From IMG/VR virus record IMGVR_UViG_3300045988_114239: a stretch of 64,000 nt of DNA; one strand, given 5' to 3'. Position numbers and translations under genes: made by a program. Of this stretch, positions 15,397-47,112 are shown in pieces (position 1 is the first letter of the stretch; every line of letters begins with the position of its first letter). The notes below the pieces were generated by a model. It did not search any database and was not told the DNA's origin. It saw only the letters and a program-made list of their open reading frames with translations. Source of the stretch: a virus.

Positions 15397-15867
15397 ATGA
15401 ATCGCTGGTTTGAAATTACGGTAAAAGCCGAGATTGATAATATCGAGAACGGCAAAAAAAAGAAAGTAACTGAAAAGTATTTAGTGGATGCCTTGTCTTA
15501 CACAGAGGCAGAATCAAGATCGTTGGAGATCTTCAAGGATTTATTTAACGAGTTCGATATTGTTAAAATAAATCCTATTAAAGTGTCGGAAATCTTCTTC
15601 AACGGAGAAGCTGAGTACTGGTTTAAGTGTAAGGTAAATTACATTACACTGGATGAAAAGAAAGGTAAAGAAAAGAAAACTCCATGCTATATGTATGTCC
15701 AGGCCGGCAATCCTAAGGATGCCGAAGCTGTGTTGACTAAAGGCATGCAGGGTACGTTGGGCGACTGGAATTGCGAAGCTATTGCTGAAACGAAGATCAT
15801 TGACGTATTCAAATACGATCTTCAGAAGGGAGCTGAAAAATTAGGCGAGAAGAAGAGTGAAAAGTAA
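15397..15867 (+). CDS. hypothetical protein
   Basis: 156-aa ORF. Confidence 0.55.
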   Translation: MNRWFEITVKAEIDNIENGKKKKVTEKYLVDALSYTEAESRSLEIFKDLFNEFDIVKINPIKVSEIFFNGEAEYWFKCKVNYITLDEKKGKEKKTPCYMYVQAGNPKDAEAVLTKGMQGTLGDWNCEAIAETKIIDVFKYDLQKGAEKLGEKKSEK

Positions 15868-16096: not shown

Positions 16097-16569
16097 TAAT
16101 AAGAAGTCATGGCTTATGCCAGGCTTGCAGGAGCAAAGAGTTGACTCCGAAGAAAAAAAACAGAATTACATCCATTAAAAACAGCAGCAAGAAGAAAAAG
16201 TTAGAGAACCCGGATTTATCCGGGTTTTTTCGTCTTATGTTGGAGGAGTTGGGTAGCATTCGAATGTCTATGACTGGTAAGGCTATTCATTTTCCTACAG
16301 TATGTAACGTCTGTCACATACTTCCGAAAAGGATATATAAGTCAGTTGCTACTTGCAGGGATAATATAGTTTTCCTTCATGAATCGGAGCATACGGTATT
16401 CGACATGTATCTTGACCGGATGGAATTTGATAAACTTGAAACAGAATTTCCTTTTGTGTGGAAGTATGCGGTAAAGAAGGTACTGGATATGGAAAGCAGA
16501 GGAATGATCAAGGAAAGAGGTAGGTTGATTATTGAAATAATTGATAGGTATGATAGAAGAAAAGATTAA
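16042..16569 (+). CDS. HNH endonuclease candidate (N-terminal CxxC...CxxC zinc ribbon; CNVCHILPK...DNIVFLHESEH)
   Basis: The pattern C-x2-C-H-h-h-P ... DN ... LH..EH matches the HNH motif. Confidence 0.5.
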   Translation: MESKEKKLYVCERCGRKVIIRSHGLCQACRSKELTPKKKNRITSIKNSSKKKKLENPDLSGFFRLMLEELGSIRMSMTGKAIHFPTVCNVCHILPKRIYKSVATCRDNIVFLHESEHTVFDMYLDRMEFDKLETEFPFVWKYAVKKVLDMESRGMIKERGRLIIEIIDRYDRRKD

Positions 16570-20028: not shown

Positions 20029-20080
20029 GGCGCGAATTGCCTATCTTTGTGCTATTATTAATCAAAAAAAATATAAGCAC

Positions 20081-20359: not shown

Positions 20360-21461
20360 GATAGATATAAGAAGGATATTCAAGACCTCTAAACAAGTTA
20401 TGGAAGAGGCGTATGAGAATATCTTGAAATACAGGCGGGGAGAGCTTATCCCCGCTAAAACCGGATACGATTATATTGATGAGGCTTTGCTTGGAGGTAT
20501 TTTCCCTCAGCATGCTATTGCCATAGGAGCCCGGCCATCTGTAGGTAAATCGTATGTGGCCCAAAAGATATTGGAAAATGTGATGAATCCGATGATCAAC
20601 CCGCAAGCAGAAGATTATTTTCTTGTTAATTGCGAGTTCGAAATGAATCCTCAAGATCTTCTTCTTCGCAGAATGAGCCAGGATATGAAAAAGCGGGCTC
20701 CTGAAATATTAAGAAGGCAAGATTCTAATACAGTAGAAGAGATGAGGATGTTTGAAATCCTTCAAGGTGAAATCAGAAATAATATAATATACATCGATGC
20801 TCCGTGTACGGTAAAAGAGTTTGAGGCGGCTGTGTATCATATAGCTACCAAACATAAAGACAAACGTCTTATAATATTTAAAGTCGATCATATTGCTTTG
20901 ATAAAAAGAATGGGATTAGATCCTAAGTCGGCTATAGATGATTTGGTGGCGGTTATGAACGAAGCTAAATTAGTATATAAAAACATATTTTTCCTCATCA
21001 TATCCCAATTCAACAGAGAAATAGAAGGAAGGATAAAAAGCCCACAAGAGCAGCCTCCGCGTCTTTCTGATTTTTACCAGTCTGATACGCTGGGTCAGTT
21101 ATGTACGTTAATGATAGGCTTGCACAATCCTCGTAGGTACGGGCTGGATAAGTATATGATATTTGGGAAAGATTGGTATCAGACTCTTGATAGGTTTAAA
21201 ACTGAAAACAAAACATCATTCAGGACAGCCGGACTGGTGTTTCATCATATACTGAAGGTAAGGCAAGTTAGTATGGAAGAGCTTACTAATACAATCCACC
21301 CAGAGATACTGCCGGGACATGGATGGATGTACGGGGAGGGCGGGACGAAGTTCGTGAACCCCAACCAGCCGCCGACGCCGCCCAAGCTCTATACTGTGGA
21401 AGACGTTACGAACAATCAAGATCAAGAACAAGAGACAAAGGAAGAACAGTCATTGTATTAA
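20328..21461 (+). CDS. DnaB-like replicative helicase, C-terminal RecA-fold domain only (GARPSVGKS Walker A; IFKVDH Walker B; ISQFNREIEGR...PRLSDFYQSDTLGQ)
   Basis: The motif order matches DnaB H1, H2 and the arginine-finger region. There is no N-terminal DnaB domain. Confidence 0.85.
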   Translation: MTKMQEEIANRIDIRRIFKTSKQVMEEAYENILKYRRGELIPAKTGYDYIDEALLGGIFPQHAIAIGARPSVGKSYVAQKILENVMNPMINPQAEDYFLVNCEFEMNPQDLLLRRMSQDMKKRAPEILRRQDSNTVEEMRMFEILQGEIRNNIIYIDAPCTVKEFEAAVYHIATKHKDKRLIIFKVDHIALIKRMGLDPKSAIDDLVAVMNEAKLVYKNIFFLIISQFNREIEGRIKSPQEQPPRLSDFYQSDTLGQLCTLMIGLHNPRRYGLDKYMIFGKDWYQTLDRFKTENKTSFRTAGLVFHHILKVRQVSMEELTNTIHPEILPGHGWMYGEGGTKFVNPNQPPTPPKLYTVEDVTNNQDQEQETKEEQSLY

Positions 21462-21476
21462 AAAAAAATAAGAACC

Positions 21477-23740: not shown

Positions 23741-23772
23741 TTTTTTTTATCAACAATTAAATTTTAAAAGTT

Positions 23773-33364: not shown

Positions 33365-33408
33365 AAATTTATTTCATGTTCTGCTTATACAAGAAAAGAT
33401 GGTAACTG

Positions 33409-33453
33409 CAACAATTCCCAACCATACAATAGGCGTACGGTTGGGAATTGTTG
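33409..33453. terminator. Bidirectional intrinsic terminator: perfect 15-bp stem CAACAATTCCCAACC / GGTTGGGAATTGTTG, 15-nt loop
   Basis: Found by exact reverse-complement reading. It sits exactly at the convergence of the plus and minus gene blocks and is flanked by T-rich tracts on both strands. Confidence 0.7.
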
Positions 33454-34190
33454 TCATATCGTAAAATTAAGTGTTTTTTCTAATATCAGATATTCAGTAT
33501 GAACTTTACTTCCGCCATCATCTATCAAGTCCAAATTAATATAAGCTGTATATGATACATGATGATCACCAGGAGTGAGACTCTTCATTTCTGGTAAGAA
33601 CATAGAATTTAAACCTTGGCCGGACCATGATTCTGGATATGGCAAAGGTGTAAAGTCGGCATCTGTACATCTTACAACCCAAGTAAGATTAGGGTCTGCC
33701 CTAACTATTCTATCATGAGGTCCATCAATTACAAGATCTGGCTTCTTATATTGTTGACTCTCATAATTAAGAACAATAGAATAACCAAAGTTTACACCAT
33801 ATATACGAGAAGGTGGAGTAAAGCTTGTTATTAAAAATGTTCTATTAATCCTATTGGTTGTCCTTAGCGTAAACTTATTAGGTGCTACCACACCTACTAT
33901 AAACCCGTAAGAAGGAGAGGTTGTTAAACCAATAGTAAGAATCACAGAATCCTGCTCAAGCACTTGCTTTGTCGTATCAACCCGACTGTCGATCTCTTGT
34001 CTATCTTCAGTTGGCACACCTCCTTGAATATACACAGAATCCAACCGCTTTTTAGGAGATTGGTATATAAACTCACCACTATCGGGGACGGTGCCTATCA
34101 GCTCATAATCTACATAAATCCCCCCCCTATGCAGTTACTAACTATCTTATACTCATATAGTTTAGCATTATTTTCAAATCTTCGTCTCAT
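33454..34190 (-). CDS. MRRRF-initiated protein, paralog 1, interrupted by a G8 homopolymer (C8 on plus strand, 34120-34127); intact ~245 aa only with 9 G
   Basis: An ATG at 34190 (MRRRFENNAKLYEYKIVSNCIGG) runs into a stop right after G8. The long ORF 33454-34044 is open upstream to the tract in the +1 frame. Confidence 0.55.
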
Positions 34191-34194
34191 AATT

Positions 34195-34813
34195 TTATAA
34201 AATTAATTCAGTAAAAGGACGGACATAATGTGAACTACCCCTTGAACCTGTATCCAAATGATCTCCTTGGATGTTTATATCATAATACCACGAATAGGAA
34301 AATTTTTCATTTCGAGTGGATGTCCACATTCTATTACTCATTATCGTACCTCCTACCATTAAAAGGCATTCGTTTATTTCATTAGCATACAATGATATCA
34401 AAAAAAAACTCTCCGGCGCCACCTACATATCCATTTTGACCATTTTTAAATAAATAGCTATTAGCTTTATTAAAAGCGTAATCTGTATTACTGGTATCAT
34501 ATTCAAGATACGCATTCTGATTTTCACGCCCCCAATAATCCTTTTTAATAGTTCCCATATGAGAACTATCTTGTGCAAATATATTGTCTATTTCTCCATC
34601 CTTACCCCAACGAAATGTGCCAATATATTCGGTGGCTATAACAAAACACACTTTATCTACAAGAGCTATTCCATTGCATAGATCATTGGAATATCCTTTA
34701 TTAGACCAATTTTCTTTTGTATATAATCCTCCATCTACATGTTGGATGTATATGCCTTTATTGATTATAAGCGAGGGATTTACCCCCATCCCTATTTGAA
34801 ATCTTCGTCTCAT
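34195..34813 (-). CDS. MRRRF-initiated protein, paralog 2, interrupted by a T9 homopolymer (A9 on plus strand, 34400-34408); conserved C-terminal domain lies in the shifted frame
   Basis: An ATG at 34813 runs to a stop at 34382. The shifted frame after T9 encodes SYSWYYDINIQGDHLDTGSRGSSH, which aligns with the paralog-1 C-terminus SYTAYINLDLIDDGGSKVH. Confidence 0.55.
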
Positions 34814-34866
34814 GATTTTTGTTTGCAAGATAGCAATAATTGACAACATAAAAGAAACCGGTTCCC

Positions 34867-34900
34867 TATCATCTCTGACTGAGAACCGGTAAGAAAACAA
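34867..34900 (-). terminator. Rho-independent terminator candidate after the 2140-aa gene (8-bp stem ACCGGTTC/GAACCGGT followed by TTCTTTT on minus strand)
   Basis: Direct reading of the hairpin and T tract. Confidence 0.5.
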
Positions 34901-35026
34901 TTTCAGAAAAAATTAAACCTACATAATCTTTCAAGTAAGAACAAAAAACGTACAATCTACTCTTTGACGATGCTAATATAACATATTGGAATCATACAAA
35001 AACAATGCAAGTCCGATATTCTTCGT

Positions 35027-38000
35027 CTACTTGTAGCTAACATCATCGTCCCCTTCCGAATCAGGAGTAGCGCCGATGAAGAACATCATTGACTTGTTGT
35101 TCGTCTGCTGCCACCAATTATAGGCGCGCGCTACGTCTTCCGGCGTCTTGATATTATACCATTGTTTGATAAACGTCTGTTTGGCGAGTTGCCTAAATAA
35201 CTTAGACTCTCCCTTGTATGTACCGGATGTTACTTTATCAAGTGAATAATTCCTAAGATCGGTAAGATCCTTCAGTTTTCGCCCCATAACAAACGGATCG
35301 TTAATGATATCTACCACGTTAAGCTCCATAATAAACGGCATCTGTGAAGCTATTTCGTTTATGGTTCTGAATCCGACATAGGATCCAAATTGAGTAAGCC
35401 AACTTTCTTCGTTTTCATCATCATCACGCCATCCGGCAAGAAGCATAGATACGGCCTGCATGATAAGGAACGTGCCGGCATAGACACTGAGACGTTTGAG
35501 ATTGGTTTTCTCTACCTCATTCATATTGTCTTTATTTTCGTTCCAGGCATCTATGATGTTTTTCATACCAGACTCGGAAGCTAAGCTAAATGTTTTGGCT
35601 ATCATATTCTTTAACGTAATTGACAACCCTTCCTCTTCTTGCATTGTCTGGAAATTGAAGCCACGTCTTTTCCACAGACGTTGAGCCGCCAGCACCAACC
35701 ATCCTCGGTGGGCGGTCATGAACCTGGCTATCCAGTTGCGCGATGCGGCAGTTCGGTTTTCTTCATTCAAAGATCCGTTGCATATCTGCGACAAGCTACG
35801 AACTTGATTTCTGGTTATAGCCATCTGGGTTTCAACTTCCTCAACAGTAACACCCGATCCTGGCTTTACAACCACCTTCCCATCCACGACGTCTACCATA
35901 CTCCATAAAGTACGATCTTTTAATGCGTTCCATTCTCTTTTTATGGTACTCTGTTCTTTATTGCGTTCTTTTTCCATCTTGAAATCTTGGAACGTGTAGA
36001 ACCGGCCTTTGTAATAACGAACATTGTCCATAGTAGCAATCATAACCTGCGGATCAAGAGGGTAGTTCAGGATTTCCATAAAAGCATACATAGGCGAACG
36101 CATTAAGGTCCTGGCCGCTCTATTGTATCCGGCACCATACATACGATTTCGGATATTGAATATCCCCATTCTCTCACCTATGACATATAATTTGCTTTTC
36201 CTATCTATGTCTCCGGTTTCTGCTATACAAGATGGCGCAAGACGTGAAAACTCAGCCGATGCGTATTTAAGGGAGTCTTTGCTTATATACTGTCCTACGG
36301 CAGATTCCATGATGAGGTTGATATGACCTGTCAGGGCGCCGGTAGCTGCCACAAACGGAGACAGTGCCAAGTTCATAACCGACATAAATCTTCCAACAGC
36401 CATCATAATTCTTGTAAGGTCTACCGTATATCCTCCGATGTTCACCGTAAGTTTTTTGGTGTTCATCCTAATGCCATAATAATGATCGTTGAAGAAGTCC
36501 CTAAACATCTGATATGCTTGGGTTGCTTCAGCCTTCTTACCGCCCTCAAATTGTTTGTTCAGCAACATCTGCTCCAGTCCTTGGGCAAGCTCTATAGACT
36601 TCTGCTTTTCGTTGTATAACGATGACTGCATCATAAGCATCGAATAAGAGTAGCCAAAATCGTGAGATACATCATCTTGGTTCTCCAATTCATATATGTA
36701 GTATTTAGGTATAGACCTAAGTCTGTCTTCCGGGTCATATACTTCCCCTTGCCTGGTCTTACCATATAGAGAATCGTCTACTCTGTCCAGGCACAGATCT
36801 GATACAAAATTACGAACCGTATTTTTGAAGTTAATACCCAATCCTTCCATACGTTCTATGTCTTGTTTTGATATCTGTGGAATAGCATACAAATTGGGAC
36901 TCTGCTCTTTGTATAGATCAAGGGATTGTCTTTTTATTTCCTTGAGTTTTTGAATCATATTCCACTGCTCTACGTTTTTAGTAGCAACTTCATTACCGTC
37001 AGCATCATACTTGATACCAAAGTCATTGAAATACGATTCATCACGATACAGGCTTTTCTTAGGCATGCGATGACCATACCCATGATCTTTTACATAATCA
37101 GGATTACGGCCGCTATTTTCGGCTTCAGATTCAGCCACCCATGCCCTTGCAGGATCGAAAGACAGGTACGATATGTCCATGCCATAATCTTGGGTGGATG
37201 TACCGTTTTGTACGTCCTTAACCATCTGCGCCACATCTATCTCACCTCGACCTATTTTGTCGATCATGGCCGCATATCCGGTAGGCGCCATGCGTTTATA
37301 GTACGAAAAGACCTGGCTCCTGGCAAATTCATTAACAATAGCATTGGTCTCTTCTATGCCCTCTTCTCTTGTGTTATTTAAAAATAAGCTGGCCATCTTA
37401 GCATTAACAGCATTCCTGAAATCTCTACCGTCTAATTCTTTGCTTATACCAAGCTTTTCTGACAGGTAGTTGGTTTCAGATACGGTAAACAGATATCGGT
37501 TATCAGCAGCCTTAAACAGCTTATCCCTTAAAGCCTGAATCCTTTTTGCTTTCTTCGCCGTAGTATGACGTTGTACGAACTTCCATTCCACTTCCTTGGA
37601 GTCAGCAAGAGCATTTAAATAAGACTGATTTACTTCGTTTTCGGCCTTACTGCTTTTAGTAAGGTACTTATCAATATCTTCAAGACCCACCATCTTAGCA
37701 TAATCTATTAAGATAGCGTAATCAGCTTCAATAGCTTCAGATGCGGCCCTAAAAGCATCTCTTTCAGATGAGGTAAATGTCGCTTCGTTAATTTCTCCGA
37801 TATCAGCCACATCTCGGTTGTTTCCGATTATTTCCTTGATAATGGCCTTATTTTTTTCTATATCTTTCACAATCGAATCCACGTCAGTCGCATCTCTATC
37901 ACTTGTCGTAGAACTAATGATATCATGCGCCATTTTAAGATACGAAGCCTTGTTATTTGATTCGGTACGCGCCGACTGTTCCGATTCTACTTCATTCCAA

Positions 38001-42938: not shown

Positions 42939-43214
42939 CTATAAATTTAATATTCCGTTTTTACCAATATGTTTCTTTTCTTCTTTAGTGGGCCATTCTT
43001 TCTTGAACTTACCGTGCCACGTTCCAGGAACTACCACCAGTTCGTCCTCCTTACTATATTCAATAGCGGCACATTCAGAACAAAGAGGCTTGCCTTCATA
43101 TCCTTTTAAAGATTCATCGTAAATACGATTCTTACAAGGTCTTATAAGAGCCCAGTAACATGATGTGGCTGTATTATCTATACAGCCACATTTTGAACAT
43201 ACAAACAAACTCAT
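42939..43214 (-). CDS. Zn-ribbon protein (CSKCGC...C...CSEC)
   Basis: 91-aa ORF. Confidence 0.5.
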   Translation of the reverse strand: MSLFVCSKCGCIDNTATSCYWALIRPCKNRIYDESLKGYEGKPLCSECAAIEYSKEDELVVVPGTWHGKFKKEWPTKEEKKHIGKNGILNL

Positions 43215-44074
43215 TCCGCCATCTCCCAGTCATTAGACATAATATCATGTTCGGTTGGATTCCAATTTGATGCTACTTTTTGACCTGTATCTACCATCAA
43301 TATATTTACGTCAAACATACAGATATACTTTTTACCCCAATCGATTCTTTTTATCTTACGACCTAATTTAAGCCGTTCTAAAGCCTGTTCGAATGTCATG
43401 CCACGACGAGGCAGTTTGAGATACTTTTTAAGTCTGTCGGCAGCTTCATTTGGTGTATGGCCATCGTATTCGAAAGCGGTTTCTCTTTCAGGAACATCAA
43501 ACAAATCCCAGTATTTGCTTTCATAGTGATTAGATACCTGACCGGTAGGTAGGATCGCCATCACAATAAACCAATCATCAGAACCGAAGCATTTTTCTCC
43601 GTCGCTGTGTCTCCTTGATTTGCAAACTTCAACCTGTCCATTTCTGGCTAATAGATTAAAGAAGGCAGCGTTATACAACATGCTATACCGATACAATTCA
43701 TTGAAAGTGTGGTATCCGTCAGAGACTTCTCCCACGTCTACAGGCTTCTTGTTTTGAATACTACCCAAAATCTTCTCTACATAGAGCTGTATTTTATACA
43801 GACCCATTTCGGTGTGGCCGTATTTGTTCAAGATATTATTGACATCGTATTGTATATTAAAATCTTTTTCAAATTCTACTTCAGGATGATTAGGATAGTA
43901 GTAATCTACTGATGCTTCTAACACAGACTTGATATGCTCTACTATCCTCGTGGCATCATCATGTTTTAAGAAATTCTTGAATCCCTCAACGAATTTAATA
44001 TCTTCTTCGATTGTTGATTCGAACTCTTCTTTTGTCATTACTCTAATCACATCTTTAAAATCTTTTAATTCCAT
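43211..44074 (-). CDS. Two-domain protein with C-terminal DUF2829/Tad2-like domain (MTFEQALERLKLGRKIKRIDWGKKYI...WNPTEHDIMSNDWEM)
   Basis: The C-terminal ~65 aa match the remembered DUF2829 signature M.F.EAL..LK.GKK..R.GW ... W.P...D..A.DWE. Confidence 0.5.
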   Translation of the reverse strand: MELKDFKDVIRVMTKEEFESTIEEDIKFVEGFKNFLKHDDATRIVEHIKSVLEASVDYYYPNHPEVEFEKDFNIQYDVNNILNKYGHTEMGLYKIQLYVEKILGSIQNKKPVDVGEVSDGYHTFNELYRYSMLYNAAFFNLLARNGQVEVCKSRRHSDGEKCFGSDDWFIVMAILPTGQVSNHYESKYWDLFDVPERETAFEYDGHTPNEAADRLKKYLKLPRRGMTFEQALERLKLGRKIKRIDWGKKYICMFDVNILMVDTGQKVASNWNPTEHDIMSNDWEMAE

Positions 44075-45299: not shown

Positions 45300-46743
45300 C
45301 TGGTATTGAAAAAAATAGGTTCAGATCTTGGGTAAAGATTCGAGCCAATTTTTAACATCTTTAGGTAATTATATACAACTTTACACCACAAATACGCCAA
45401 TTTGTTTTCATATATAAATAATAATTTCTATATTTGTGTCATGAGATTAGTCGAACAACATACAATCAAGCCAAGTTCTGTTTATTACAATGAGCTTTAT
45501 GACTTATTGCATAAGTGTAAAAACTTATACAATAAAGGGTTATATGTTGTTAGACAGTATTATTTTCAATACAAGGATGATAATACTGTAAAGTATAAGT
45601 ACCTAAACTACTATTCTCTTGAAAAGAAGTTAAGAACAGAAAATGATGTTGACTATCGTGCTTTACCAGCACCGGTTGCTCAACAAGTGTTGATGATGGT
45701 TGATAGAAACTTTAAATCTTTCTTCAATCTCTTTAATAAAAAGAATAGAGGTGAGTATTCTGAGGAAGTAAGAATGCCAAGGTATCTCAACAAGGGTGGT
45801 TTGTTTCCTGCTGTTTTTGCAACAAATGCTTTTTCTCAAAAATGGATAAAACAAGGCATTGTTAAGTTACCAAAACAGTTTTCCTTTACAACAAGAACTA
45901 ACAAGCAAAATATTCAACAACTTAGATTCATTCCTAAGAATGGGTATATTGTTCTTGAAATAGTTTACAATAAGAAGGAAAAGAATCTTATGTCCGATAA
46001 TGGGAACTATCTTGGCATCGACATAGGATTGGATAATTTAGCATCTTGTGTTTCAAACACCGGTTCTTGTTTTATCATCAATGGTAGACCACTAAAGTCT
46101 ATTAACCAATATTATAACAAAAGGTTAGCATTCTTAAAATCTAAGTTAAAAGACAATAAACAGATTTCAAAACAAATAAGGTCATTAACCGACAAAAGGA
46201 ATAACAAGATCAAAGACTATCTGCATAAAGCAAGTAGAATATTGGTTAATCATGTAGTTTCCAATGGTATTAATACGATCATAATCGGTCATAACAAGTG
46301 CTGGAAACAAGAGATCAATATTGGAAAGCGTAATAATCAGAACTTTGTATCTATTCCTTTTAATTCGTTTATCAGTATGATATCGTATAAAGCTACATTA
46401 GAAGGTATTAATGTTAAGATCGTTGAAGAATCTTATACTTCAAAATGTAGCTTTTTAGATAATGAACGGATTTGCAAACATGAATCTTACAAAGGAAGAA
46501 GGATTAAACGAGGATTGTTTAAAACCTCTTCTGGTAAGACAATTAATGCTGATATCAATGGTGCTTTTAACATCATCCGTAAATCGGAAAAAGAATCCTT
46601 TGATGTAACGATGTTACCAGAAGGTAGAGGGTTTTGGTGTAACCCGGTACGAATTTCCGTATAAATGTGTATTACTTTACGCTTTTGGTGTAAAGTGGTA
46701 TATAATCACCCATTTAGGGTCTTTGTCTATTCTATCTCTCAGT
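45300..46743 (+). mobile_element. IS200/IS605-family TnpB-only (IS1341-like) element; boundaries approximate
   Basis: A lone plus-strand gene in a minus-strand block. It encodes TnpB and there is no TnpA nearby. Confidence 0.6.
45441..46664 (+). CDS. tnpB: TnpB (OrfB) RuvC-like RNA-guided endonuclease homolog: RuvC-I GIDIGLDNLA, RuvC-II IVEESYTSKCS, RuvC-III NADINGAFNI; zinc finger degenerate (only two Cys)
   Basis: All three RuvC motifs are in canonical order and spacing. The N-terminal region is typical of the OrfB_IS605 family. The start was trimmed to MRLVEQ. Confidence 0.85.
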   Translation: MRLVEQHTIKPSSVYYNELYDLLHKCKNLYNKGLYVVRQYYFQYKDDNTVKYKYLNYYSLEKKLRTENDVDYRALPAPVAQQVLMMVDRNFKSFFNLFNKKNRGEYSEEVRMPRYLNKGGLFPAVFATNAFSQKWIKQGIVKLPKQFSFTTRTNKQNIQQLRFIPKNGYIVLEIVYNKKEKNLMSDNGNYLGIDIGLDNLASCVSNTGSCFIINGRPLKSINQYYNKRLAFLKSKLKDNKQISKQIRSLTDKRNNKIKDYLHKASRILVNHVVSNGINTIIIGHNKCWKQEINIGKRNNQNFVSIPFNSFISMISYKATLEGINVKIVEESYTSKCSFLDNERICKHESYKGRRIKRGLFKTSSGKTINADINGAFNIIRKSEKESFDVTMLPEGRGFWCNPVRISV

Positions 46744-47112
46744 TCATGCAATGCTGAGTCCATAACCGTATTCGGTACGCCAATCAAATCTCTTAGCAGA
46801 CTCTAATTTTGAAGATAATATAAGAGAATATAAACCAGATTCATTAATTATTCTTATACTATCTATATATCTGGTTTTCAATATAGATCGTTTTACGCCC
46901 CATTGATTATCAGATACTTGCAAAAGCATAGAATCATCATCATCTACATGTCTTTTTACCGCATCTTTAGCATTTATATATCCAAGAGATTTAGCCACAT
47001 CTGACGCCACAAACCAAACATCTCCTTTTGGATCTACAATAATTCTAAGCTCTCCAAAATCCGAACTTTCAAAAACAGAAACTTTATCCATGATAAAAAA
47101 AAATAGGCCCAA
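46744..47112 (-). CDS. Bro-N domain protein (phage antirepressor/KilA-N-like DNA-binding protein)
   Basis: Bro-N pattern F.S..FGELRIIVDPKGDVWFVASDVAKSLGY.NAKDAV.RHVDDDD. Confidence 0.7.
   Translation of the reverse strand: MGLFFFIMDKVSVFESSDFGELRIIVDPKGDVWFVASDVAKSLGYINAKDAVKRHVDDDDSMLLQVSDNQWGVKRSILKTRYIDSIRIINESGLYSLILSSKLESAKRFDWRTEYGYGLSIA

Follow-up and report, generated by a model that had tools for sequence, protein, structure and literature searches.

Single-base changes in the length of a homopolymeric guanine tract near the 5′ end of a small accessory gene probably act as a DNA-level contingency (phase-variable) switch in a phage of the human gut. The sequence concerned is a stretch of 64,000 nucleotides (nt), here called the window, from the IMG/VR virus record IMGVR_UViG_3300045988_114239 (G+C content 37.7%), in which the accessory gene (gene 1) and a neighboring gene (gene 2) lie on the minus strand, begin with the same leader and are each broken by a homopolymer, namely a run of eight G (G8) in gene 1 and a run of nine T (T9) in gene 2 (Table 1). 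In the explanation favored here, the poly-G tract of gene 1 would gain or lose a G by slipped-strand mispairing (polymerase slippage) during replication of the phage DNA, and progeny with the tract in frame would produce a protein of 245 amino acids (aa) with two predicted immunoglobulin (Ig)-like domains, while those with the tract out of frame would produce a 26-aa stub; the G8 tract of the window would then represent an OFF allele. Gene 2 carries the common leader together with an interrupted copy of the G tract and is additionally knocked out in the window by a change from T8 to T9. The T run itself is regarded as a site where mutations are frequent and tolerated, gene 2 being dispensable, and not as a conserved switch; the conserved feature is the poly-G of gene 1.

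The window belongs to a very common lineage of ~150-kb human-gut phages, which is recorded as hundreds of contigs of 80–158 kb and as protein clusters with thousands of members, and its closest phage in GenBank is csAssE-Sib (OR575929.1, 151 kb, human gut; 97% identity over the aligned parts). About 150 contigs related to the window were compared. The gene 1 loci (78) were taken from IMG/VR, run lengths were counted on 73 contigs and phase on 71 analysable copies including the window, and the in-frame tract length was worked out separately for each of three subfamilies. Tract counts for gene 2 come from loci picked via gene 1 and not selected on gene 2, and a control set of 80 further loci was taken around an unrelated early gene. 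A count of T8 in 80/80 of the ‘best 80’ gene 2 loci (79 by pattern and one by eye) was rejected as an artefact of ranking by intact match.

In the window, the leader block ATGAGACGAAGATTT is an exact 15-mer present in exactly two copies, one at the head of each gene as stated in a preliminary description of this locus, with 0.26 matches expected at two or fewer mismatches. The G8 run of gene 1 begins at codon 22 and spans codons 22–24, and the frame that starts at the leader (frame A) closes three codons past the tract. With one G added, the frame runs without interruption from 34134 until its stop codon at 33454, and a tract of nine G thus specifies the 245-aa protein. The preliminary description had proposed from the single sequence that G8 breaks the gene, that G9 restores it and that the full-length products are real, and a 245-aa database protein (P0001) with 99% identity to the reconstructed G9 product bears this out for gene 1, as does the 205-aa homolog in csAssE-Sib for gene 2. 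The contig that encodes P0001 (L160) differs from the window, as far as the tract is concerned, by one extra G alone, and with a further contig (L241) the subfamily of the window comprises tracts of G8 (window), G9 (L160) and G10 (L241). The tract is a clear compositional outlier, since no other G/C run in the 64-kb window exceeds five bases (11 runs of 5, none of 6 or 7), while A/T runs of 8–9 are not rare (12 runs). Gene 1 therefore has an anomalous homopolymer in its 5′ coding region, a property of contingency loci based on simple sequence repeats (SSRs).

Variation of this tract among relatives is extensive. The poly-G is found at nt 64 in all 78 gene 1 loci and in all three subfamilies, 3′ of a nearly invariant leader, and its uninterrupted length is G8 in 15, G9 in 28, G10 in 23 and G11 in one, with shorter (interrupted) runs in seven. 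Gene 1 is in frame in 31/71 copies and out of frame in 40/71, and the in-frame homologs that the preliminary description suggested looking for therefore exist, as does length variation of the slipped-strand kind that it had offered as one possibility (G8–G11 in gene 1 and T7–T9 in gene 2). Six loci that share identical 660-nt gene 1 bodies carry tracts of G10, G8, G8, G9, G8, and G9. A neighbor-joining tree of 47 loci, with 0.476 substitutions per site in total, requires the tract to have changed 20 times or more, which corresponds to a rate at least 42 times that of the average site, and on this tree the ON/OFF state changes 11 times compared with 13.5 in permutations, an almost randomised distribution. 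The polymorphism rate of the tract is thus far above that of substitution, and the frame toggles while the rest of the open reading frame (ORF) stays intact, both of which are further properties of SSR contingency loci.

The preservation of the reading frame downstream of the tract is seen in several ways. The downstream ORF of 219–222 codons is intact in 70/71 copies, a second frameshift being found in 1/71, and the 263 distinct nucleotide variants in the gene 1 body include no real stop codon, against 10.3 expected when variant positions are randomised. OFF alleles are no more damaged than ON alleles, which implies that OFF alleles are either young or regularly reverting. A pure G run of at least eight is retained in about 90% of gene 1 copies across subfamilies that differ at a synonymous polymorphism (pS) of 0.15–0.22. 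In addition, the interrupted gene 1 tracts of 10 nt (GGGGGTGGGG and similar) are in frame in 4/4 cases, and recoding of the GGAGGTGGC type is proposed as a locked-ON form of the tract. The leader is 93–95% identical between subfamilies and the rest of the gene 83–98%, with the exception of the first 90 nt past the poly-G (about 34030–34119 of the window, minus strand), which are the most divergent part of gene 1; here the largest subfamily (TAAT) is 52–56% identical to the other two at the nucleotide level, and those two are 83% identical to each other. Recombination with a breakpoint at the tract, or a mutation rate raised locally beside the G run, could account for this divergence.

Homopolymeric runs elsewhere in the lineage provide controls for these counts. 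Coding A8 runs at 15454–15461 and 16153–16160 are invariant in the control set (78/78 and 50/50, respectively), and so are coding A7 and A6 runs of the adjacent giant gene in the gene 1 loci (75/75 and 73/73), whereas intergenic A8, A9, and T8 runs between early genes (20064–20071, 21460–21468, and 23741–23748) are strongly polymorphic in length; at one of them, for example, 17 loci have A7, 32 have A8, and 11 have A9. Fixed coding runs together with variable intergenic runs indicate that assembly copes with homopolymers this long, and that frameshifts are purged by selection only in genes that are needed. In this lineage, instability is an intrinsic property of runs of eight or more, and some of those between genes could serve to adjust the length of promoters or spacers. 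A shorter run at 34943–34948 (minus strand), in the region that separates gene 2 from the giant gene, has six T in the window and in 53 relatives and seven T in 21 relatives; csAssE-Sib has T7. Another T9 run (plus-strand A9) at 47095–47103 lies just 5′ of the likely ATG (ttatcATGGAT) of a Bro-N ORF (46744–47112, minus strand); a third broken gene at this run was considered and rejected, since the run is upstream of the ATG and outside the coding sequence.

Gene 2 is broken by its T9 run, as had been claimed, although the truncated product is 143 aa long and not 144 aa. Removal of one T allows a frame that opens five codons before the run to continue to the stop at 34195 and gives a 205-aa protein, and the homolog in csAssE-Sib has T8 and is intact and annotated at this length. 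The T run is T7 in nine loci, T8 in 54, and T9 in six, and the truncation of the window recurs in P0128, which represents a cluster of 91 members; similarly, truncated gene 2 calls of 144, 152, 140, and 136 aa are abundant in the protein database, some of them with many members. The N-terminal G tract of gene 2 matches the poly-G of gene 1 in position (MRRRFQ-IGMGV in gene 2 and MRRRFENNAKLYEYKIVSNC-IGGGV in gene 1), and its form GGGATG(G)n has n = 4 in two loci, 5 in 56, 6 in nine, 8 in three, and 9 in two, with a pure G10 in one locus. The joint states of gene 2/gene 1 are ON/ON in 19 genomes, ON/OFF in 19, OFF/ON in 11, and OFF/OFF in 20, the window being OFF/OFF, and independence of the two genes is not rejected (p = 0.33).

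Table 1. Positions of gene 1, gene 2, their tracts, and flanking hairpins in the 64,000-nt window.
Feature	Coordinates	Strand	Remark
Gene 2 start and leader block ATGAGACGAAGATTT (MRRRF)	34799..34813	-	exact 15-mer; ATG at 34813
Gene 2 N-terminal interrupted G tract GGGATGGGGG (codes IGMGV)	34783..34792	-	in frame in the window; counts in relatives
Gene 2 frame A, truncated 143-aa ORF	34382..34813	-	ends 5 codons past T9; same truncation in P0128
Gene 2 T9 run (plus-strand A9)	34400..34408	-	in-frame length T8; counts in relatives
Gene 2 frame B, C-terminal 60-plus codons with conserved WTST...VRPFTELIL core	34195..34399	-	lost in the T9 allele
Gene 1 start and leader block ATGAGACGAAGATTT (MRRRF)	34176..34190	-	exact 15-mer; ATG at 34190
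Gene 1 frame A: leader, poly-G, then TAG (26-aa ORF)	34110..34190	-	TAG at 34110-34112
Gene 1 G8 run (plus-strand C8), hypermutable poly-G	34120..34127	-	G9 in frame for the subfamily of the window; run counts in relatives
Gene 1 frame B, main part of the 245-aa protein (two predicted Ig-like beta-sandwich domains)	33454..34134	-	opens 2 codons before the tract and continues to the gene end
Terminator-like hairpin with U-rich tail, between the giant gene and gene 2	34857..34890	-	-21.3 kcal/mol, z -2.9
Long perfect hairpin directly past the gene 1 stop, at the junction of convergent gene blocks	33407..33456		-31.9 kcal/mol, z -8.05

Several observations weigh against a contingency role for gene 1. 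Synonymous variants are not enriched in the gene 1 body (65 observed, 64 expected), and the ratio of nonsynonymous to synonymous polymorphism (pN/pS) takes values of about 0.5 in comparisons across subfamilies and of 0.8 to above 1 inside a subfamily, compared with 0.02 in the adjacent giant gene, which together point to weak constraint on the protein or to diversifying selection. The OFF fraction of gene 1 (56%) differs little from the 67% that free drift of tract length would produce. In 20/69 genomes neither gene is on, and many relatives are without gene 1; an adaptive role in bet-hedging is accordingly putative. The T8 run of gene 2 is not conserved in sister alleles of ~83% identity, which encode GEFSL, GEFLL, or GEFQL at this place, and the mutability of the run is therefore read as incidental, in a gene that can be dispensed with. 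The evidence comes from assembled sequences; a mixture of tract lengths within one phage population and reversibility within one lineage are predictions of the switch, and the G8 and T9 of the window itself could be consensus errors. A diversity-generating retroelement was also considered as the source of the high pN/pS and was set aside, the variation being scattered and not confined to one region, in a window that was not searched for reverse transcriptase. Many of these observations would also be expected from neutral decay, in which both genes are dispensable, the runs are the first landing sites of loss-of-function mutations and no switching takes place. Neutral decay would be in keeping with the high pN/pS and near-neutral OFF fraction of gene 1, the genomes with both genes off, the absence or replacement of gene 1 in about 35/80 loci, the frequent internal deletions and chimeras of gene 2, the equal variability of intergenic A/T runs of the same length and the missing T8 of the sister alleles, and for the T tract of gene 2 taken alone it is quite plausible. 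As an account of the whole locus it is considered unlikely, because the gene 1 body is free of stop codons and has next to no second frameshifts, a pure G run of at least eight is kept in most copies in a genome that avoids G/C runs, and the interrupted 10-nt tracts are all in frame.

A sequencing or assembly error at the homopolymers of the window, the true genome having G9 and T8 and two intact genes, would fit the fact that both lesions are single-base changes in runs of eight to nine with the nearest intact versions one base away; the window is known as assembled sequence, and breaks in European Nucleotide Archive (ENA) scaffolds at the repeated leader show that the locus is hard to assemble. 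Such an error is nevertheless improbable, as the other long ORFs of the window have no visible break at a run, the coding A7 and A8 runs are called alike in 50–78 independent assemblies, and the alleles recur independently (G8 in 15 loci, T9 in six loci, and P0128 with its 91 members). Because of this recurrence, an error in the window would leave the result at the population level unchanged. Programmed recoding, in which being out of frame is the normal design of the genes and the full-length protein is made by a ribosomal −1/+1 frameshift or by programmed transcriptional slippage, had been offered in the preliminary description as a counterpart to slipped-strand variation. The G8 allele contains G_GGG_GGA, which is formally an X_XXY_YYZ heptamer, and frame B of gene 1 opens two codons before the tract while frame A closes three codons after it; however, in-frame, +1, and +2 tract lengths co-occur among the relatives, and the alleles would consequently need shifts in different directions. 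Moreover, no shift is needed in 78% of gene 2 copies (54/69 with T8) or in 44% of gene 1 copies, the sole nearby hairpin (34093–34074) lies ~25 nt past the tract compared with the usual 5–9 nt, and the interrupted, ‘locked’ tracts sit in frame, so that programmed recoding can be given very little credence. A/T runs of nine or more cause slippage of RNA polymerase, which makes it plausible that OFF alleles are rescued to some extent by leaky slippage on the runs; such rescue may occur alongside a DNA-level switch. Recoding of TAG or TGA occurs in some gut phages; reassignment of stop codons was rejected here, as frame A meets TAG, TGA, and TAG within seven codons past the G tract and in-frame alleles exist. 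Phase variation of gene 1 at the DNA level is thus retained as the probable explanation.

The two genes had been described as paralogs with homologous C-termini, and this did not survive comparison of the reconstructed proteins. BLASTP between the gene 1 and gene 2 proteins aligned MRRRF only (E 0.25) and a profile–profile alignment with hhalign gave a probability of 1.3%; judged by these comparisons, the bodies are not homologous and the leader alone is shared. Searches of PHROGs found no match at E ≤ 0.1 for either reconstructed protein or for a 149-aa protein that replaces gene 1 in some relatives, and Pfam gave only sub-threshold noise for the two reconstructed proteins. The full-length gene 1 protein, modeled by AlphaFold2 from an alignment headed by P0001, is predicted with confidence to be all-beta (predicted local distance difference test score, pLDDT, 85.7) and to consist of two Ig-like beta-sandwich domains, a generic fold in keeping with Ig-like/FN3-like domain proteins, in which leader residues 9–18 form a strand of the first domain. 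A fold search of BFVD with gene 1 returned its own family only, and a scan of GTDB genomes found no relative of gene 1 and hence offered no clue to a prophage or host.

Gene 2 has a wider distribution, with 714 relatives in a profile search of 1.84 billion representatives. Its ~185-aa domain occurs at the C-terminus of proteins of 600–2400 aa with BspA-type leucine-rich repeat, CotH, lectin, or Lcl_C domains, and also standalone in proteins of about 220 aa. The gene 2 protein of the window scores 11.3 bits (E 0.43) against PF07603 Lcl_C (DUF1566), for which the gathering threshold is 34.9 bits; Lcl_C is also matched below threshold by 20/48 relatives of the gene 2 family (best E 1.5e-4), and the gene 2 domain is found together with true Lcl_C domains in P0195 and P0196. 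Weak sequence matches in the Protein Data Bank were 4eps_A and 8q4e_A, and the AlphaFold2 model of gene 2, built on a shallow alignment, has a pLDDT of 30. Gene 2 may accordingly be described as a distant DUF1566/Lcl_C-like domain, as far as sequence similarity goes. A binding or adhesion role can reasonably be inferred for both proteins. The more specific tail-fiber or receptor-binding role that had been suggested for them finds no counterpart in a PHROG or Pfam match, and the Ig-like and DUF1566-like folds are generic.

The two genes follow, on the same strand, a giant ORF of 2140 aa (stop at 35027) with a PHROG match to ‘virion structural protein’, and they had been taken for the 3′-terminal genes of its operon. 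The terminator-like hairpin that separates the giant gene from gene 2 argues against this, and gene 2 and gene 1 may lie outside the operon. The long perfect hairpin past the gene 1 stop is likely a bidirectional terminator.

The locus is recombinogenic. Contig L031 (4001–4693) joins the leader of gene 2 to the body of gene 1, with the junction spanning the G tract. Other natural chimeras and deletions are represented by P0183 and P0184 (both chimeric), P0126, and P0139; they include a fusion of the N-terminus of the 149-aa cassette with the C-terminus of gene 2, and in-frame internal deletions of gene 2. The slot after gene 2 has three alternative states, gene 1 being absent or replaced as mentioned above, and among loci L080–L159 its place is taken by the 149-aa cassette in about a third of relatives. 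This is an unrelated ORF, beginning MRRRFENI[KN]TVAGVKIPVFACS..., with a signal-peptide-like N-terminus and a lipobox-like VFAC; it has the MRRRF leader without a poly-G or any other long run and is intact in 24/27 loci. The duplicated leader breaks short-read assembly, since the runs of N in two independent ENA scaffolds, L160 (sample SAMN07491245; about 2900–3000) and L241 (sample SAMN28062090; 460–536), start exactly at the repeated ATGAGACGAAGATT leader, and in L160 gene 2 is lost in the assembly gap.

A broader reading can be built on this arrangement, in which the MRRRF leader and the poly-G constitute a portable 5′ module that would combine two roles, switching expression ON or OFF and providing a handle for the recombination or targeting of unrelated accessory proteins that occupy one slot. 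The proteins concerned, at the slot after the giant gene, would be the two-Ig-domain protein, the DUF1566-like protein and the 149-aa cassette (the last with MRRRF only), and their combinations would give the phage population a repertoire of adhesins associated with the virion, or of ejected proteins, for use in bet-hedging. The portable module is a tentative proposal and rather doubtful as it stands; if true, the bet-hedging would be directed at variable hosts, which are assumed to be of the Bacteroidales type, or at mucus.

Two further ORFs of the window were noted. A TnpB-like ORF (45402–46664, plus strand) has Pfam OrfB_IS605 and Cas12f1-like TNB domains and a PHROG match to transposase, and its position inside the minus-strand virion gene block, on the opposite strand, suggests an insertion of the IS200/IS605 type in the phage genome. 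A 287-aa ORF (43211–44074, minus strand) combines a WDGH domain with a domain like Tad2 (Thoeris anti-defence 2) and is a candidate anti-defence gene on the basis of these domains.

These results bear on annotation as well as on phage biology. Gene callers split or truncate both genes (calls of 26, 143, 189, 193, 196, and 221 aa), and breaks at such tracts should neither be ‘corrected’ as errors nor annotated as pseudogenes. The signature found in this gut lineage comprises an anomalous poly-G, a phase randomised on the tree, an intact downstream frame and stabilised in-frame variants, and if reads confirm mixtures within samples, the locus would provide a marker of a size suited to the polymerase chain reaction (PCR) for bet-hedging in gut phages. 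The literature on csAssE and on poly-G or contingency loci of gut phages yielded nothing specific to this lineage.

Poly-G/C SSRs are found in phase-variable surface genes of Neisseria, Haemophilus, and Campylobacter, and phase variation by repeat slippage is textbook knowledge in these bacteria. Gene 1 resembles such loci in four ways: the tract lies close to where the ORF begins, similar runs are absent elsewhere in the genome, ON and OFF states are scattered at random over the phylogeny, and the frame past the tract is preserved; it differs in that the carrier is a virus, where switching would take place per burst and not per cell division. The internal-protein cassettes of phage T4 are unrelated small proteins with a common N-terminal capsid-targeting sequence that are exchanged between relatives. 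By analogy only, the slot described here may be likened to them, as it also is a variable slot with unrelated small proteins that have only a short conserved N-terminal leader, and the DNA encoding it, in common and that are exchanged among relatives.

Phage phase variation by repeat slippage has been argued only recently, in Campylobacter phages and in T-even laboratory phages. As summarised in a preprint, the receptor-binding genes of Fletchervirus (Campylobacter phage) carry poly-G tracts of 7–11 (Sorensen et al., 2021, Cell Rep 35:109214, in bioRxiv 10.1101/2025.10.21.683753), and according to the same summary a change in tract length switches the frame and gives rise to subpopulations (bioRxiv 10.1101/2025.10.21.683753). 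The locus of the window is similar in having a run in the range of 7–11 G in a non-essential accessory gene beside virion genes. In contrast, it belongs to an unrelated lineage without sequence homology, it is known from metagenomic polymorphism and not from experiments, receptor binding is a feature of the Fletchervirus genes and would be hypothetical for those in the window, and its MRRRF leader and G tract head two unrelated bodies. In phages T2 and T4, A-runs in agt and rIIA are contingency loci in which reversible changes shift the frame by ±1 far more often than bases are substituted (Gomez, Barrick and Waters, 2025, bioRxiv 10.1101/2025.10.21.683753); these runs lie in dispensable genes of an A+T-rich genome, their reversion rates were measured and a bet-hedging role was proposed (bioRxiv 10.1101/2025.10.21.683753). 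The T7/T8/T9 run of gene 2 fits this type, whereas the main tract of the window is an anomalous poly-G that is conserved over diverged alleles and whose rate was derived from phylogeny. Contingency loci with poly-G or A-runs are therefore already known in phages, and what stands out in the present locus, a further member of this kind, is the signature in a natural population together with a leader-plus-tract module on unrelated proteins.

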